Shown here: positions 2,360 through 58,199 of the stretch, piece after piece
Position numbering within the stretch: position 1 is the first letter of the stretch
Layout: every line of letters begins with the position of its first letter
NCBI RefSeq assembly: GCF_025211055.1
Contig: NZ_JAOARO010000068.1
Coordinates: 3,095 to 67,094, forward strand
Source of the DNA: Vallitalea sp.
GTDB lineage: Bacteria > Bacillota > Clostridia > Lachnospirales > Vallitaleaceae
Reading direction: 5' to 3'
DNA: 64,000 nt
Made by a program: the position numbers and the translations under genes
The notes under the pieces: generated by a model
The model's input: only the letters and a program-made list of their open reading frames with translations
Database searches by the model: none
What the model was told of the DNA's origin: nothing

Positions 2360-4057
2360 ATGTTATTACACCTTCATGTAAAAAATTATGCGTTAATTGA
2401 TGAAATCAACGTAGATTTTAACGATAACCTAAATATATTAACTGGTGAAACAGGAGCAGGAAAATCTATTATTATTGGTTCTATTAATGCTGTTCTTGGA
2501 GGGAAAGTTAGTAAGGACATGATAAGGACAGGTTGCGAAAGTGCTATAATTGAACTACTGTTCTATGTTGATAATAATGTTGTTTTAAGTAAATTACATG
2601 AATATGATATTAGCATGGATAATAATAAAGAACTCCTTATAACTAGGAAAATAAATATTAATGGTAGAAGTGTGTTTAGAATGAACGGACAAGTTGTTAC
2701 TACATCCATAGTGAAGGATATTTCAACTAAGCTAATTGACATTCATGGTCAACATGAACATCAATCTTTACTAAATAAAAAGAATTATCTATCCTTATTA
2801 GATACTTTTTGTGGTGTGGATGTATTAGAATTAAAAGATAAACTTAGAGAAAAGTATACATATTATATGGAGCTCAGTAGTAAAATAGATCATTTTATGC
2901 TTGATGAACACACTAGAAAAAAAGAAATATCTTTTTTAGAATATGAAATAAATGAGATAATATCAGCTAATCTGATAATTGGTGAAGATAAGAAACTCAA
3001 AGAAGAATACACTTTACTCTCAAATGGTAAAAAGATTATTAAGTCTATGTCAGAAATACATACTTATGTTAATGGAGACAGTACCAATATCACTGGTGCA
3101 ATAGACCATATAGGGCAAGCAGTAAAGCTACTGTCTGGAATAAAGACACTAGATAAAAATATAATGAACATGGAAGAACAAATCTCCAATATTGAAATTA
3201 TGTTAAGTGATTTTAATAGAGATATAAACGACTATATAAGTAGTTTTGAGCTAGATGAATCAAGATATTTTGAGATTGAAGATAGAATAGACTTAATTAA
3301 TAATTTAAAAATGAAATATGGAGATACTATAGAAGAGGTATTAAATTATAAAGAAGAAAAAGAAAAATATCTAGAAGAATTAATCAATCATGAAGAACAC
3401 TTGAATCAAATAAATGAAGAAATAAATAATCTAAAAAATGAAATCGAAGTTTACTGTGGCGACTTAACAAGAATTAGAAAAGAAAAAGCTGTACATATCA
3501 GTAAATTGATTATAAATGCATTAAGGCACATTAATCTGTTGAATACTAATTTTGTAATAGAAGTCAACAGAGCCAACAAATTTAATGCAAATGGATGGGA
3601 TGATATTGAGTTTTTAATTTCTACAAATGTAGGAGAACCATTGAAATCACTTAGTAAAGTAGCCTCAGGAGGAGAGTTATCAAGGATTATGCTGGCTATC
3701 AAATCAGTTCTAGCTGGTAGTGATGATATTGAATCATTGATTTTTGATGAAATTGATACTGGTATTAGTGGAAAAACTGCAGGACTGGTTGCAGAAAAAC
3801 TGGTTCAGATTTCAAAAGAACATCAAGTCATCTGTATTACTCATTTGGCTCAAATAGCTGCTATGGGAGATGCTCACTTCATTATCCAAAAGAAAGTGAA
3901 AGACAATATCACACATACTTTAATAAATAAATTAAATAAAAAAAGCTCAATTAATGAACTAGCAAGATTACTTGGTGGTATAAAAATAACTGATGCTGTT
4001 ATTGCAAATGCAAAAGAAATGAAGGACTACGCAGAAGAAGTTAAAAAAAACTCATAA
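2360..4057 (+). CDS. recN: DNA repair protein RecN
   Basis: Walker A GETGAGKSIIIGSI, long central coiled coil, SGGELSRIMLAIK signature, Walker B LIFDEIDTGISG. Conserved argR-recN-spoIVB-spo0A order. Confidence 0.92.
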   Translation: MLLHLHVKNYALIDEINVDFNDNLNILTGETGAGKSIIIGSINAVLGGKVSKDMIRTGCESAIIELLFYVDNNVVLSKLHEYDISMDNNKELLITRKININGRSVFRMNGQVVTTSIVKDISTKLIDIHGQHEHQSLLNKKNYLSLLDTFCGVDVLELKDKLREKYTYYMELSSKIDHFMLDEHTRKKEISFLEYEINEIISANLIIGEDKKLKEEYTLLSNGKKIIKSMSEIHTYVNGDSTNITGAIDHIGQAVKLLSGIKTLDKNIMNMEEQISNIEIMLSDFNRDINDYISSFELDESRYFEIEDRIDLINNLKMKYGDTIEEVLNYKEEKEKYLEELINHEEHLNQINEEINNLKNEIEVYCGDLTRIRKEKAVHISKLIINALRHINLLNTNFVIEVNRANKFNANGWDDIEFLISTNVGEPLKSLSKVASGGELSRIMLAIKSVLAGSDDIESLIFDEIDTGISGKTAGLVAEKLVQISKEHQVICITHLAQIAAMGDAHFIIQKKVKDNITHTLINKLNKKSSINELARLLGGIKITDAVIANAKEMKDYAEEVKKNS

Positions 4058-6848: not shown

Positions 6849-6995
6849 ATGGCTAAAGAAAAAGTAAAAGACAAAGGTGGAACTCTTGGTGGACTATCTA
6901 AAAGTCATAACAATAATAGGAGTGTAAATGGGAAAATTAAAAATTCTAAGGATACCACAAGTTGTGATTCAGATAATTTGAGTCATAAAGATTAA
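6849..6995 (+). CDS. small hydrophilic protein, 48 aa (MAKEKVKDKGGTLGGLSKSHNNNRSVNGKIKNSKDTTSCDSDNLSHKD), absent from the ORF track
   Basis: ATG 5 nt after GGAGGG (6838-6843). Uninterrupted 48 codons between the spo0A terminator and the TetR promoter. No family recognised. Confidence 0.45.
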   Translation: MAKEKVKDKGGTLGGLSKSHNNNRSVNGKIKNSKDTTSCDSDNLSHKD

Positions 6996-7022
6996 ATTAT
7001 TTGATATTTTTTGGTATTATTA

Positions 7023-7072
7023 TTGACACTAATGACTATAATAGTATATAATTGTTTTAGTCATAAGTGTCA
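7023..7072 (+). promoter_or_regulatory. sigma-A-type promoter flanked by a 15-bp inverted repeat (probable TetR auto-operator)
   Basis: TTGACA (7023-7028), 18-nt spacer, TATAAT (7047-7052). Arms TGACACTAATGACTA (7024-7038) and TAGTCATAAGTGTCA (7058-7072) are reverse complements with 1 mismatch. Confidence 0.55.
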
Positions 7073-7116
7073 TTAATAATTACTACATAGTTTTAGGTCA
7101 AAGAAAGGAAATGATT

Positions 7117-7680
7117 ATGCCTAAAATAGTTGATGCAGAAGCTATAAGAATAGAGATAATAAAAAAAGCATTTAATGTTTTTGTTAAGAAAGGCTATTAC
7201 AAATCAAGCATGATGGATATTACCAAGAGCTGTAATATGAAGCGAACAACAATTTATCACTATTTTAAAAATAAGGATGAGATATTTGAACATACTATAT
7301 TATATGTTATAGAAACTCTTGAGAATGATATTATAGATATTTCTAAAGATGATGAGATGACTTTAATAAAAAAAAAATATCTAACTAATAAATGGGATAA
7401 TGAATTTAACAATAATAATATTCTATTACTGCTTGTTGAAATGTGGTTTGCCATAAAAAGAGAAGAAGGAGAATTATTTGATAGAATCAAAAATAGAATA
7501 ATATTAATGAACAAATCTATCAATAAAATTGTTGTGCAAAAAGCAAAATATATGGTTAATTCTAAGAGAGATAAAAAGCAGTTAATTGAATACTCAATGA
7601 TAATGTCTATGCTTAATCAGATTACCAGTGAAAAAGAGTTTTTGAGCGAAAGTATAATATCTGTTATATCATCTTTTTAA
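7117..7680 (+). CDS. TetR/AcrR family transcriptional regulator
   Basis: N-terminal TetR HTH (KKGYYKSSMMDITKSCNMKRTTIYHYFKNKDEIF). ORF opens at 7111; ATG 7117 has better spacing to the AAAGGAA SD. Confidence 0.85.
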   Translation: MPKIVDAEAIRIEIIKKAFNVFVKKGYYKSSMMDITKSCNMKRTTIYHYFKNKDEIFEHTILYVIETLENDIIDISKDDEMTLIKKKYLTNKWDNEFNNNNILLLLVEMWFAIKREEGELFDRIKNRIILMNKSINKIVVQKAKYMVNSKRDKKQLIEYSMIMSMLNQITSEKEFLSESIISVISSF

Positions 7681-7754
7681 GTAGTTTCATATGTTTAGGA
7701 ATAATTTATACAAAGCATTATTATATATAAGCTTATTTAAATAATTTAACCTTG

Positions 7755-7896
7755 TTGTTAAAAGGGAGTAGCTTCAAAGTTATAAAGTCAACAACCGCGG
7801 TATGTAATACCTGGCTTTATAGTCCTGTAATGGAAAGCAAGACTTTTATGACAAAATGTAGATAACTAATCTGCAATTGTCATAAAAGTCTTTTTA
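7755..7896 (+). promoter_or_regulatory. yybP-ykoY (Mn2+)-class riboswitch candidate with terminator expression platform
   Basis: Conserved strings AAAGGGAGUAGC (7761-7772) and AGCAAGAC (7836-7843). P1 pairs 7759-7764 with 7843-7848. Helix 7781-7789/7813-7821 encloses hairpin 7799-7811. Terminator 7839-7853/7878-7892 plus U5 shares the P1 3' strand. Confidence 0.7.
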
Positions 7897-7931
7897 AATT
7901 ATATAAGATAAATATAAAGGAGGTCATTTTT

Positions 7932-9302
7932 ATGAAATCACCAAAATCATTTTTTAGTAAGGTAGCAATAAAAGAAGGTATAAAATATTTAGAAAAAGAT
8001 CCTATAACTAATTTTCCAAAGCTTATTGATTGGGCAGGTAAGATTCCTATGTTACCAACCCAAAGGCATCAATATGAGGCAATAATTGATATATGGCAAG
8101 ATAAAAACTCTATATGGCACGATTTTATAGAAAGAATATTGACTAAGATACATCCCAATATTAGAAAGACACTTTTAATGAATTTTTCTATCAATGCTGG
8201 AATAGAAGGACTAAAGCTTATTAATGAGAACAAAGAGAAATATGACTGTAACATACCATGGGCGATTTTAATGGATCCAACTTCTTCATGTAATCTAAAA
8301 TGTATTGGCTGCTGGGCTGCAGAATATAAGAAAAATGATTCATTAGACTATGATACCTTGAGTAATATAATAAAACAAGGTAAAGAACTAGGTACATATA
8401 TGTATATTTACTCTGGTGGCGAACCTATGGTTAGACGAGATGATATAATAAAACTTGCAAGAGAACATAATGATTGTGTATTCTTGGCATTTACTAACGG
8501 TACTCTTTTTGATGAAGACTACGCAAAAAGACTTCAGGATGTCGGGAATGTTACATTTGCTATAAGTATCGAGGGTTATGAAGAACAAACAGATATGAGA
8601 AGAGGAAAAGGTACATATCAGAAAGTAATCAAAGGAATGGATATATTAAGGGAGCATGGTATTCCTTTTGGATTTTCTTCATGTTATCATAATAAAAATG
8701 AAGAGATAGTATCTTCTGAAGAATACATAGATTTTATGATTGAAAAAGGTTGTTATTTTGGATGGATATTTACTTATATGCCATTAGGAAAAGATGCAGT
8801 ACTTGACCTATTAGCAACAGCTGAACAAAGAAAAGATATGTACTATAAAGTACGTGAATATAGAAAAACAAAACCAATATTTACTATGGACTTTTGGAAT
8901 GATGGAGAATATGTTAATGGATGTATTGCTGGAGGAAGAAATTATCTTCATATCAATGCAAATGGTGATGTTGAACCTTGCGCATTCATTCATTATTCAA
9001 GTGCTAACATCAAAGATGTAAGCCTATTAGATGCATTAAAGCAACCTTTATTCAGACAGTATAGAAAACATCAACCTTTCAATGATAATATGCTTAGACC
9101 TTGTCCATTACTTGATAATCCAGAAATGCTTAAAAAAATGGTACATGATTCAGGAGCTCTTTCAACACAGCCAATGGATAGAGAGGATGTAGACGACCTT
9201 ACAACTAAAACCAAAGAAGTTGCAGAAAAATGGGCACCCGTAGCAGAAGAACTTTGGCAAGAATCACATAGATGTATTAATTGTAAAGCTGCTAACCAAT
9301 AA
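7932..9302 (+). CDS. radical SAM protein with C-terminal Cys-rich (twitch/SPASM-like) region, function unknown
   Basis: CX3CX2C at SSCNLKCIGCWAAEY and GGEPMVRRDD glycine-rich SAM motif. C-terminal cysteines: NGCIAGGRNYLHINANGDVEPCAF, RPCPLL, HRCINCK. About 110-aa N-terminal extension. SD AAGGAGG. Confidence 0.85.
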   Translation: MKSPKSFFSKVAIKEGIKYLEKDPITNFPKLIDWAGKIPMLPTQRHQYEAIIDIWQDKNSIWHDFIERILTKIHPNIRKTLLMNFSINAGIEGLKLINENKEKYDCNIPWAILMDPTSSCNLKCIGCWAAEYKKNDSLDYDTLSNIIKQGKELGTYMYIYSGGEPMVRRDDIIKLAREHNDCVFLAFTNGTLFDEDYAKRLQDVGNVTFAISIEGYEEQTDMRRGKGTYQKVIKGMDILREHGIPFGFSSCYHNKNEEIVSSEEYIDFMIEKGCYFGWIFTYMPLGKDAVLDLLATAEQRKDMYYKVREYRKTKPIFTMDFWNDGEYVNGCIAGGRNYLHINANGDVEPCAFIHYSSANIKDVSLLDALKQPLFRQYRKHQPFNDNMLRPCPLLDNPEMLKKMVHDSGALSTQPMDREDVDDLTTKTKEVAEKWAPVAEELWQESHRCINCKAANQ

Positions 9303-9382: not shown

Positions 9383-10087
9383 TTGAAACGAGACAGGCGA
9401 ATCAATGCATTATTACTTTTTTTGAAATTATTTTCCATTTTTAATGTTGTGCTTATTGCTATTATTATAAGCCACTATTGGGGAAAAATTACACCAGAAG
9501 ATATTTTTAATTATGTTCCTGATAATTACTTATTAGCTGCTATTACTATTATAGGGTTATTTTTGATTAAATCACTTAGCGTGGTATTACCTTTGATGGC
9601 TCTTTACATTAGTTCAGGAATGATATTTTCGCCGTTGTGGGGTATTATTGTTAATCTGATTGGATTGTTTATTAGTTTGACAATACCTTATTTGTTAGGT
9701 AGATTTTGTGGAAAGGGTTTATTAGATAGATTATTAGTGAAATATAAAAACATAGAGAAGCTTAAGACAATTAAGAGTAAGAATGAATGGTTTTTATCAT
9801 ATATATTGCGTATGATTGGTATTCTACCAGGAGATATAGTTAGTATGTCACTAGGAGCTATGAATATTAATTATAATAAATATATAGTGGGTTCAATAGT
9901 GGGATTATTGCCTAGAATGGTAGTAGCTACATGTCTAGGTTCAACCATAACAGATCCTACCTCACCAGTATTTATACTGTCGTGCGTAATTACGGTTGTG
10001 TTAACTGGAGGGTCAATGTTCTTGCATCAGAGATTTATGAAAAAAGAAGATGGTAGAAATAATGCTAAAGTAATAACCAGATTATAA
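9383..10087 (+). CDS. TVP38/TMEM64 (VTT domain, DedA superfamily) integral membrane protein
   Basis: TTG start 7 nt after GGGAGG. Multi-pass membrane protein with the SNARE-associated/VTT-like segment LRMIGILPGDIVSMSLGAMNINYNKYIVGSIVGLLPR. Confidence 0.7.
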   Translation: MKRDRRINALLLFLKLFSIFNVVLIAIIISHYWGKITPEDIFNYVPDNYLLAAITIIGLFLIKSLSVVLPLMALYISSGMIFSPLWGIIVNLIGLFISLTIPYLLGRFCGKGLLDRLLVKYKNIEKLKTIKSKNEWFLSYILRMIGILPGDIVSMSLGAMNINYNKYIVGSIVGLLPRMVVATCLGSTITDPTSPVFILSCVITVVLTGGSMFLHQRFMKKEDGRNNAKVITRL

Positions 10088-10273
10088 TTAGCCAAAAAAG
10101 GAGTTTAACTTAATAAGATAATTAAGTTTGCTTCTTTTTTTTTACCTAATATTACTTAAGTACAAAAATTCTCTTTATGATATTTAATTATTATGTTAAT
10201 ATTAAGAGTAATGAGTACTAAGAAAATGGTATATTCCAAACATCTTTTGGCAAGTAACGAGTATTGGGGGAAT

Positions 10274-11365
10274 ATGATGCAAGATAATTATTATAATGAG
10301 GAAAAACTATTATTTGATAACGAAGTAAAAGTAAACTATGGTATAGCAAAAGTTCTATTCTATATTGCTATAACAGTTATTCCATTAGTGATAGTTCTAC
10401 AGTTACTTGGAGTGTTCATATATTACATGGTTGATGCAATAATGGCAATAGTAACTGCTTTTATTCTTTTAATTATGCCTAGAATACTAACAATAGTACA
10501 TGTACATAAAAAGAAGTGGTTTAAGTATATACTATTGATTTTAGTTGTAATGATATTACCATTAATTTATTTAGAATATGATTATATGGTATTGATTTTA
10601 TGGATATTTCCACTATTGATAAGCTGTATGTATTTTTCTAATAAGTTTAATACCATTACGGTAATTTTTGATGTTGTTGTGTTAGGTTTTACAAGTTACT
10701 ATAGATCCTATCAAAGATTACAAAACAATTTGATTTCTAAGCGTATCGGAGGATTGTTCAAAGATTTCATTATAAGCTATATAACTTATGCAATGCTAGT
10801 CATAATATCATATGTTATAATATTTTTATTAACTAAGAAAACCAATGAGTTATTACAGGATGCTATAAAAAAGAAGGAATTTGAAATTCTTTCAATAACT
10901 GATTCAATGACGGGAATGTATAATCATAGATACTTAATGAGTGAATTAGAAAAGAATCAAGAACAATTTCATAATGAGAATATTCCATTTGCTGCTGTTC
11001 TTTTTGATGTGGATCATTTTAAAAGTATCAATGATACATACGGTCATGTTGAAGGTGATTGTGCATTGCAGGCAATAGTTAAATGTCTACAGAAAATAGT
11101 AAGACAAGATGATGTAATAGGTAGGTACGGCGGAGAAGAATTTTTGGTTATCCTATCTAACACTACAGTTAATGAAGCATATATGATAGCTGAAAAATGC
11201 AGACAAGCAGTATCTAGATTAAAGATAGAAAATATTGATAGATATATTACAATAAGTGGTGGTGTGGCTGAGTATAATGGGGAAGACATAAGAGATTATA
11301 TTAGGAGTATGGATGAGAAGATGTATGATGCTAAGAACAATGGAAGAAATATAATAATAGCATAG
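10274..11365 (+). CDS. membrane-anchored diguanylate cyclase (GGDEF domain)
   Basis: About 6 predicted TM helices, then a GGDEF domain with active-site GGEEF and I-site RQDD five residues upstream. ORF opens at 10193; ATG 10274/10277 follow a GGGGG SD. Confidence 0.85.
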   Translation: MMQDNYYNEEKLLFDNEVKVNYGIAKVLFYIAITVIPLVIVLQLLGVFIYYMVDAIMAIVTAFILLIMPRILTIVHVHKKKWFKYILLILVVMILPLIYLEYDYMVLILWIFPLLISCMYFSNKFNTITVIFDVVVLGFTSYYRSYQRLQNNLISKRIGGLFKDFIISYITYAMLVIISYVIIFLLTKKTNELLQDAIKKKEFEILSITDSMTGMYNHRYLMSELEKNQEQFHNENIPFAAVLFDVDHFKSINDTYGHVEGDCALQAIVKCLQKIVRQDDVIGRYGGEEFLVILSNTTVNEAYMIAEKCRQAVSRLKIENIDRYITISGGVAEYNGEDIRDYIRSMDEKMYDAKNNGRNIIIA

Positions 11366-18649: not shown

Positions 18650-18917
18650 ATAAAGGCGAAGAAGAGAAGGAGTAAATATACTTGTATTATTAAGAGAGAA
18701 GATGGGTACTGCGAATCTTCACAATCAATATATTGAAGTAGTCTCAGAGCCTTGAACCGAAATAATAGTAGGCTTCAACGGAAATCCACCGTTATCATAG
18801 GATAGAGTATCGGTAATATAAGTTGCCTGTACTTGATGAGTGTAGAGATTATCTCTGAATTTAGGTGGTACCACGGATTAAGAATTCGCCCTAAGCTATT
18901 AAAGCTTAGGGTTTTTT
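18650..18917 (+). promoter_or_regulatory. T-box riboswitch leader (probable Val specifier) with terminator; no intact downstream gene
   Basis: Stem I elements (GAAGAGAAGGAGTA, AGAGAGA, GGTACTGCGAA). Specifier region GAAGUAGUC (18735-18743). T-box AATTTAGGTGGTACCACGG (18858-18876). Terminator CCCTAAGCT/AGCTTAGGG (18889-18911) plus T6. Confidence 0.8.
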
Positions 18918-57818: not shown

Positions 57819-57944
57819 TCAATATAGAATAATAATATATCATAAGATAATGGGTCAATTTAAAGGAAAATATTAAAAAGTACTTGACAAATCGTTAATA
57901 AACGAATAAACTGTAAGAAACTATTTTACTAAGAAGATATCAAT

Positions 57945-58199
57945 AAAACGTTGAAGAGGAAAAGTAAATTATGTCCACCTATGCAGAGAGAGAAGCCATT
58001 AGCTGGAAAGTTTCTTATAGACCATGATTGAAGGACACCTTAGAGTGATTCGTTGAACGCTAACACTAGTAAGCGAGTTCGGTTCATCACCGTTAACAGA
58101 TTAGAGTGGAAGCAAGTGCTTCTATTAGGGTGGTACCGCGGAATGAATATGATTATATACATCTCGTCCCTGACTATTAAGTCAGTGACGAGATTTTTT
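57945..58199 (+). promoter_or_regulatory. T-box riboswitch leader of hisS-aspS (overlapping GAC/CAC specifier)
   Basis: Stem I (GTTGAAGAGG..AGTA, AGAGAGAGAAG, GCTGGAAAG). Specifier region GAAGGACACC (58030-58039). Consensus T-box ATTAGGGTGGTACCGCGG (58124-58141). Terminator 58161-58193 plus T6. Candidate promoter TTGACA 57884 / TAAACT 57907. Confidence 0.85.

Follow-up and report, generated by a model that had tools for sequence, protein, structure and literature searches.

We have analysed a stretch of 64,000 nucleotides of the genome of Vallitalea sp. (contig NZ_JAOARO010000068.1, positions 3,095 to 67,094, referred to below as the window and numbered from its first letter) and found an RNA element at 7759-7848 in front of a gene coding for a radical S-adenosylmethionine (SAM) enzyme. 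Judging from its sequence and from that of its relatives, the element very probably belongs to the yybP-ykoY (Mn2+) riboswitches as a functional aptamer with a three-way junction, coupled to an intrinsic terminator and working as an ON switch for the radical SAM gene and for the gene of a VTT-domain membrane protein that follows it. In itself the RNA is unexceptional within its known class, and its three-way architecture has already been characterised in alx of Escherichia coli. What is new here is the output, a radical SAM enzyme, which is recurrent and undescribed. The accepted role of Mn2+ riboswitches is that of fail-safe switches for exporters, and to our knowledge very few of their outputs are anything other than transporters. 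A literature search, which excluded subscription journals, retrieved no paper linking yybP-ykoY elements to radical SAM or DedA/VTT genes. One non-transporter output of a Mn2+ riboswitch is YybP of Bacillus subtilis (PMC13598126).

The element carries two conserved strings that can be read directly from the sequence, AAAGGGAGTAGC (RNA AAAGGGAGUAGC) in the L1 region at 7761-7772 and AGCAAGAC on the 3' side at 7836-7843 (this and all other features of the element are on the + strand). The switch helix P1.1 is formed by UAAAAG (7759-7764) and CUUUUA (7843-7848), which pair over 6 bp, and the second of these strands is common to the 5' arm of the terminator. The 5' side of the L1 loop, GGAGUA (7765-7770), lies inside the block GGGAGUAGC (7764-7772), which is invariant in all related elements by design of the search pattern described below; the block is also found in E. 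coli mntP as GGGGAGUAGC, to which the Rfam model RF00080 aligns it. The 3' side of the loop, AAGA (7839-7842), belongs to a second block, AAGAC (7839-7843), and doubles as the first bases of the terminator arm. In the minimum free energy (MFE) fold, GCUU (7771-7774) pairs with AAGC (7835-7838) to form P1.2, both strands being supported by the alignment as well. Comparison with E. coli mntP places a junction linker of 5 nt, CAAAG (7775-7779), at the site where four-way-junction members have the P2 hairpin. The window element has no P2 hairpin, and in the RF00080 alignment its 17 positions shrink to 3 nt, so that the junction is three-way and not four-way. Beyond the linker, the 5' strand of P3.1 (7780-7790) pairs with UGGCUUUAUAG (7812-7822, from fold and alignment), with a core at 7781-7789/7813-7821. 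The L3 loop, ACAACCGC (7791-7798), aligns to GUCA-ACAUACU of mntP and is closed by GUCA/UGGC, and P3.1 encloses a further hairpin, P3.2 (GGUAU-GUA-AUACC, 7799-7811). The fold is completed by the P4 hairpin, UCC-UGUAAU-GGA (7823-7834). A first-pass annotation, made from the letters of the window, had already pointed to both strings, to a P1 helix, to a 9-bp helix and to the hairpin enclosed by it, and all of them are where it had placed them. Its further claim, that the known multi-helix layout is reproduced, holds only in part, P2 being missing; it had noted neither this absence nor the P4 hairpin.

The architecture of the class consists of two coaxial legs meeting at a four-way junction, with the metal held between L1 and L3; an invariant adenosine of L3 provides selectivity for Mn2+, and P1.1 is the switch helix shared with the expression platform (PMC11672702, PMC12153347). 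The roles of the L1 loop, among them an A-minor contact, have been described (PMC12153347), and the family consensus of L3 is ACAUACU, with a conserved A (PMC12153347, PMC11672702). The window element has the L1 feature of the class (GGGGAGUAG on the 5' side and AAGA/GAGA on the 3' side, including the adenosine of the cross-helix A-minor contact) and also its L3 feature, i.e., an asymmetric loop of the left leg whose first base is an A and whose third is the metal-contacting A. A7791 corresponds to the stacking adenosine and A7793 occupies the site of the conserved metal-contacting one, while positions 4-7 of the loop, four in all, differ from the ACAUACU consensus. Two other features of the class are absent. 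The coaxial legs P1.x-P2 and P3.x-P4 of the four-way junction are not found, with the 5-nt linker in place of P2, and the first gene downstream does not code for Mn2+/cation efflux or homeostasis. The missing P2 is not disqualifying; alx is an accepted three-way member and elements without P2 are common before classical genes. As to the gene context, it counts as support for membership, but the RNA class is not defined by it.

Compared with yoaB of Lactococcus lactis and with yybP and ykoY (meeY) of B. subtilis, the element has in common the frame GGGAGUAGC...AAGAC, an L3 starting with ACA within a GUCA/UGGC helix, and a P1.1 3' strand shared with an intrinsic terminator, with ON logic (PMC11672702, PMC13598126). 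It differs from them in lacking P2, in having ACAACCGC instead of ACAUACU as L3, and in its output, which is a cytoplasmic radical SAM/SPASM enzyme instead of an exporter of the TerC, MntP, GDT1 or P-type ATPase kinds. Like the window element, E. coli alx belongs to the class, lacks P2 and forms a three-way junction (PMC12153347). However, the alx-like members, reported only in Enterobacterales, have an L3 that starts with U (UCAUUAC) and a translational platform (PMC12153347). The switch of alx is translational, is coupled to pH and serves a TerC exporter, whereas the window element, from an anaerobe of the Clostridia, has an L3 that starts with A, a terminator and a radical SAM gene downstream. 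It therefore shares the architecture of alx and is not a member of the alx-like subgroup. In E. coli mntP the blocks follow the order GGGGAGUAGC, P2 hairpin, GUACGUGUCAACAUACUCGUU...AACGUGGCACGUAC, P4 hairpin and AGGCGAGACC, and the order in the window is the same minus P2.

We have found many relatives of this element before classical genes. The composite motif GGGAGTAGC-N8-18-GTCAACA-N28-55-GCRAGAC, whose short first gap (N8-18) excludes P2, is found at a single site of the 64-kb window; 100 shuffles that preserve dinucleotides did not contain it. Metagenome contigs scanned with it yielded at least 120 stretches and at least 80 loci (L089-L168), 66 of those listed being unique, and the three-way elements among these have the helices, spacing and loops of the window element, only the downstream gene being different. 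Among the loci listed, Pfam identifies the genes after the elements as GDT1/UPF0016, TerC, P-type cation ATPases and Na/Ca exchanger, and further as TerB, M48 peptidase and a carbonic anhydrase fusion; a stand-alone VTT gene (L102) and a radical SAM orthologue (L139) are single cases. The variant of L3 found in the window, ACAACCG, is also present in L143, before a TerC gene, and in L102 and L139.

A covariance model, R1, was built without any radical SAM leader, from 23 window-like elements each of which stands before a gene for GDT1, TerC or a P-type ATPase. These training elements align cleanly, RNAalifold recovers P1.1, P1.2 and P3.1 from them, and compensatory changes affect 13 of the 20 pairs. 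R1 has a single match in the window, at 7754-7853, which covers the whole model (positions 1-101 of 101) with 62.9 bits and an E value of 1.8e-15 in 626 kb. The classical elements score 59-95 bits under the same model, a range that includes this value, and the full-length match supports the proposal of the first-pass annotation, namely an ON riboswitch of the yybP-ykoY type before a radical SAM gene. The model also detects E. coli mntP (29 bits, E 2.4e-5). When 31 related elements were aligned, 96.3% of the cells paired and double changes were again found in 13 of 20 pairs; not one of 500 shuffles reached any of these measures, and in slid controls the pairing dropped to 21-50%. By helices, P1.1 had compensatory changes in 6 of 7 pairs, P1.2 was 100% paired across the alignment, and P3.1 was 97% paired with compensatory changes in 6 of 10 pairs. 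A MAFFT alignment that combined three-way and four-way leaders, which was misaligned by the P2 insertion, and one mixing two L3-context subtypes were discarded.

Several observations weigh against a functional Mn2+ aptamer at this site. RF00080 gave 16.0 bits on a stretch of 116 nt, under a gathering score of 45, and was silent in larger search spaces, reporting (in its Rfam 15 version) nothing at the gathering threshold on the whole window and nothing at E <= 10 on 401 nt. The pattern used to collect the training set of R1 had its origin in the window, which guarantees about 23 matching bases and makes the score partly circular. The aptamer alone folds no better than shuffles (z = -0.57), and no promoter was detectable between the aptamer and the tetR gene located upstream. 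Finally, the first gene does not code for a metal transporter, and members of the class may respond to Ca2+ or to pH (PMC11672702, PMC12153347).

The first of these points was examined with controls. A score below the RF00080 gathering threshold had been named in advance as grounds for refuting the riboswitch, and 16 against 45 is formally such a result. No Rfam family other than RF00080 matches the aptamer, and the RF00080 alignment covers GGGAGUAGC, GUCAACA and UGGC. The validated mntP element of E. coli K-12 (L088, 962-1058) reached 41.6 bits, also below 45, and its 5' GGGGAGUAGC strand was left unpaired. Ten elements with a three-way junction, located before genes for GDT1, TerC or P-type ATPases, scored 34.5, 19.7 and 18.4 bits or went unreported. 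Since a validated element and those before classical genes fall below 45 as well, the RF00080 gathering threshold is non-diagnostic for the three-way form in Rfam 15, and the Rfam searches, which covered the window plus 20 loci at the gathering threshold and several stretches at E-value cut-offs, are uninformative for this subtype. Rfam-based annotation probably overlooks many Mn2+ riboswitches, and with the under-scoring of mntP and of the three-way form, riboswitches and their regulons are likely being missed in genome annotation. As to R1, the presence of the same motif and architecture before classical exporter genes holds independently of its score.

To follow the leader across orthologous loci, 80 loci with radical SAM orthologues were fetched from reference genomes. 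By blastn, only two of them, both from Vallitalea (L001 and L002), match the leader, and a leader resembling a Mn riboswitch was found in these two and in two Spirochaetaceae only. Contigs with closer relatives add three distinct copies, L082, L083 and L139, the last one from the metagenome scan. The leader is present in L001, L002, L082, L083 and L139, and 76 of the 80 reference loci lack any such leader. The radical SAM gene is the first one behind three-way leaders in five distinct Vallitalea-like sequences. Between L002 and the window the leader is about 95% conserved, while the flanking intergenic DNA has diverged and the proteins are 78% identical; the aptamer core is nearly unchanged, and 9 nt of the terminator loop have been deleted with the stem kept. 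P3.2 appears in compensatory forms, GGUAU/AUACC, GGUAU/AUGCC (L002), GGCAU/AUGCC (L083) and GAC/GUC (L139), and the P4 stem is retained with different loops in L002, L082, L083 and L139. The gene order is TetR, radical SAM and VTT in L082; in L083 (3001-7497) it is TetR, radical SAM, SAM synthetase (MetK) and P-type cation ATPase, the last three behind the riboswitch. A general association of radical SAM genes with metal transporters was considered and rejected, a P-type ATPase being found within 3 kb in 1 of the 80 reference loci. Decayed leaders were also detected. In L081 (2815-2930), from Oceanirhabdus seepicola, AUG stands in place of GGG, the 3' half is divergent and the terminator is absent, and in L086/L087 (2750-2815) only the part from CAAGAC to the terminator is left. 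R1 matches neither the decayed leader of L081 nor that of L086.

The terminator (7839-7895, +) has a stem at 7839-7854/7877-7892, an inner stem at 7857-7863/7869-7875 and a T-run at 7891-7895. Its predicted energy is -26.9 kcal/mol (z = -8.0) and its 5' arm includes the 3' strand of P1.1, which agrees with the earlier description of a P1 strand within the terminator arm, followed by five U. The segment 7843-7848 has therefore two mutually exclusive partners, 7759-7764 in P1.1 or the terminator stem, and in the MFE fold of the full leader the terminator is formed instead of P1.1. In all six leaders examined, from both the Vallitalea-like lineage and the spirochaetes described below, the terminator arm begins at AAGAC and a U-run follows, with z values from -5.8 to -8. 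The outer stem is conserved, and the inner part is deleted or altered in L002, L082 and L083. A scan with a terminator consensus did not report the hairpin at 7839-7895 because its stem is AU-rich. Two other roles for this hairpin were rejected. It is not the terminator of tetR, since L002 has leader and hairpin without tetR, nor are its arms a TetR operator, the GACAA/TTGTC part being lost in L082.

The tetR gene (7111-7680, +; Pfam TetR_N) codes for a TetR-family regulator, is located directly upstream and probably is co-transcribed with the leader. The only strong promoter nearby lies before it, a perfect sigma-70-type match to TTGACA-N18-TATAAT at 7023-7052 (+), and is surrounded by an inverted repeat of 26 nt, 88% complementary (7016-7041/7055-7080), that is a candidate TetR operator. 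In L002, where tetR is absent, a perfect promoter is found about 75 nt upstream of the leader. From this arrangement, a single transcript comprising tetR, leader, radical SAM and VTT genes probably starts at the 7023-7052 promoter under the dual control of TetR and Mn2+. In the metal-free state, the 3' strand of P1.1 and the 3' side of L1 (7839-7848) would be captured by the much more stable terminator stem, and transcription would halt before the radical SAM gene. At high cytoplasmic Mn2+, L1 and L3 would dock around the metal and stabilise P1.1. With P1.1 held closed the terminator could not nucleate, and read-through into 7932-9302 and 9383-10087 would be expected. As the transcript would start at a TetR-controlled promoter, expression would require both TetR de-repression and high Mn2+. 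Translation of the radical SAM gene would be served by a ribosome binding site, AAGGAGG (7917-7923), ahead of the ATG start at 7932 (7917-7934, +).

The same enzyme family is preceded by riboswitch-like leaders in a distant group. In three lineages of Spirochaetaceae we have found four-helix leaders before radical SAM genes of this family (L077, 4453-4620; L079/L215, 1318-1475; L213, 2294-2460), the one of L213/L214 coming from a second search. They contain the blocks GGGGAGUAGC, GUCAA in an asymmetric loop of 7 nt and GCAAGACC, with an overlapping terminator whose arm starts at AAGAC, and, folded without constraints, their MFE structures show the same layout as E. coli mntP. The matches of R1 fall precisely on these leaders but are weak (17-22 bits, E 3e-4 to 7e-3), and RF00080 gave no match on them. 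In contrast to the window element they have kept P2, i.e., are four-way, their L3 starts with U (UCAAUAC, UCAAGAC, UCAAAAC), they are GC-rich and no VTT gene comes next; the enzyme family that stands first is the same. The gene after the radical SAM gene codes for an acyltransferase in L077 and L213, and in L079/L215 unrelated genes follow. The leader is absent from closer spirochaete relatives (L209-L212). That the two lineages use different aptamer architectures argues for an independent recruitment of Mn2+ riboswitches and for the enzyme as their real target. Furthermore, because the pairing of riboswitch and radical SAM gene recurs in spirochaetes, the family is probably part of how bacteria respond to excess manganese. 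A more specific proposal, that this radical SAM/SPASM family is an effector of the excess-Mn2+ response for which riboswitches were recruited independently, three-way in Vallitalea-like bacteria and four-way in Spirochaetaceae, we put forward tentatively, as somewhat less likely than not. If true, the enzyme would act beyond efflux, possibly in membrane or envelope remodelling given its TetR, acyltransferase and VTT/DedA neighbours; it might alternatively protect or replace Fe-S-dependent chemistry poisoned by Mn2+. The location of a radical SAM enzyme behind Mn2+ riboswitches in two phyla makes induction by Mn2+ an entry point to the function of the family, and is a hint that the response of anaerobes to excess manganese includes enzymatic remodelling besides efflux.

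It could be argued that the riboswitch is real and that its true target is a membrane protein, the VTT protein or the P-type ATPase of L083, with the radical SAM gene as a passenger. A near-identical aptamer drives a VTT-domain gene alone in L102, the unit of L083 has a classical output as its third gene, and most reference orthologues of the radical SAM gene, as seen above, have no such leader. However, the radical SAM gene is the only one common to all eight distinct leader-carrying arrangements, in which it is followed by VTT, by MetK and ATPase, by an acyltransferase (L077, L213) or by unrelated genes (L079/L215), and the spirochaete units contain no transporter. Besides, the VTT protein of L102 is distant from that of the window (26% identity over 78 residues). 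We consider the passenger explanation improbable, and the radical SAM gene the better candidate for the target.

More unlikely still is that the aptamer is a specificity variant sensing another divalent cation, or pH, instead of Mn2+. Its L3, ACAACCGC, is off the ACAUACU consensus at four positions, P2 is absent, the first gene is no exporter, and there are precedents in the class for a response to Ca2+ or for pH coupling (PMC11672702, PMC12153347). Yet the same three-way architecture is found before GDT1, TerC, P-type ATPase and Na/Ca-exchanger genes, and the window aptamer retains both L3 adenosines and all L1 bases. The spirochaete leaders, with another L3 and four helices, indicate that the radical SAM output does not go along with any variant feature common to its leaders. 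A change of ligand seems unlikely because in L143 the same aptamer, with ACAACCG as the identical variant of L3, is found before a TerC gene, and we infer that Mn2+ is the ligand here too. Of the two possibilities left open by the first-pass annotation, a new Mn-responsive function is thus the one favoured, and a new ligand specificity finds no support. To see in the leader a relic in decay or a resemblance due to chance, and in its hairpin a mere terminator of tetR, hardly deserves credence, for although related leaders have decayed in L081 and L086/L087 and RF00080 stays sub-threshold, the motif is absent from shuffles, the E value of R1 is about 1e-15, the core is near-invariant and shows compensatory changes in five distinct sequences with up to 22% difference between their proteins, and L002 retains leader and hairpin without tetR.

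The first regulated gene (7932-9302, +) codes for a radical SAM/SPASM enzyme of 456 amino acids (Pfam Radical_SAM, 2.7e-22; SPASM, 9.7e-8) and the second (9383-10087, +) for a VTT-domain membrane protein of the TVP38/DedA superfamily (Pfam VTT_dom), the order and identities that had been proposed at first pass. The enzyme has the cluster motif in a partial TIM barrel and the C-terminal SPASM auxiliary-cluster domain expected of radical SAM/SPASM proteins, and the CX3CX2C motif (C120-x3-C124-x2-C127, residues 120-127) is invariant in 27 homologues. The counterparts of the protein in V. guaymasensis and V. maricola share 96% identity with it, and the family is very widespread and highly conserved in anaerobes, with thousands of homologues at least 55-60% identical. 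The searches gave no specific NCBIfam family and no close PDB structure by sequence or fold. An AlphaFold2 model (predicted local distance difference test score of 89) compared by Foldseek retrieved generic SPASM maturases only, SuiB, SkfB and anSME. Mss, the synthase of membrane-spanning lipids (PMC13159169), is a candidate lead for the identity of the enzyme on circumstantial grounds, the distribution restricted to anaerobes and the acyltransferase, TetR and VTT neighbours; in the fold search the lipid synthase GDGT-MAS appeared at rank 48, with a TM score of 0.38 and no special similarity. Residues 1-105 (window 7932-8246) are confidently predicted to form an all-helical N-terminal domain, which would be unlike the winged-helix RRE domains of the closest structural matches, the peptide maturases.

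Regarding the neighbours of the enzyme, at least 31 of 74 reference loci have a TetR gene directly upstream of the one for radical SAM. A VTT gene follows the latter in L001, L002, L081 and L082, and among the reference loci a VTT gene after the radical SAM gene is found only in Vallitalea. In the spirochaete locus L212 (1-3898) no riboswitch is present, and the radical SAM gene comes after genes for a regulator of the ArsR type and a heavy-metal P-type ATPase. In L102 (10039-10916, -) the three-way Mn aptamer with the L3 of the window drives a DedA-type VTT gene alone, feoB being the next gene; Mn2+ riboswitches may thus have, in VTT/DedA proteins, a class of outputs that has gone unrecognised. 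A gene upstream of the L102 riboswitch, considered as a possible radical SAM gene, was rejected, as it codes for a nitrogenase-like oxidoreductase.

The metagenome scan also provided a second reduced form of the class, in 24 of the 80 loci listed (L090, L092, L098, L103, L105, L115, L122, L140-L163). It has a segment of 18 nt with a very short hairpin at the position of P2 and a linker of 7 nt where P4 is expected, is found mostly before MntP, and many of its loci are from the human gut. The contig of L110 carries, together with a unit of Mn riboswitch and P-type ATPase, a cyclic di-AMP riboswitch (RF00379, 94 bits; 3001-3171, +). In the window itself, a membrane-anchored GGDEF diguanylate cyclase gene (10193-11365, +) comes after the VTT gene. 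A small open reading frame of about 48 amino acids, MAKEKVKDKGGTLGGLSKS..., is conserved in both Vallitalea genomes between spo0A and tetR or the leader (window 6850-6996; L002 2525-2671). Two T-box leaders, at 18650-18896 and 57942-58174 (+), scored 127 and 121.5 bits against a gathering score of 93.

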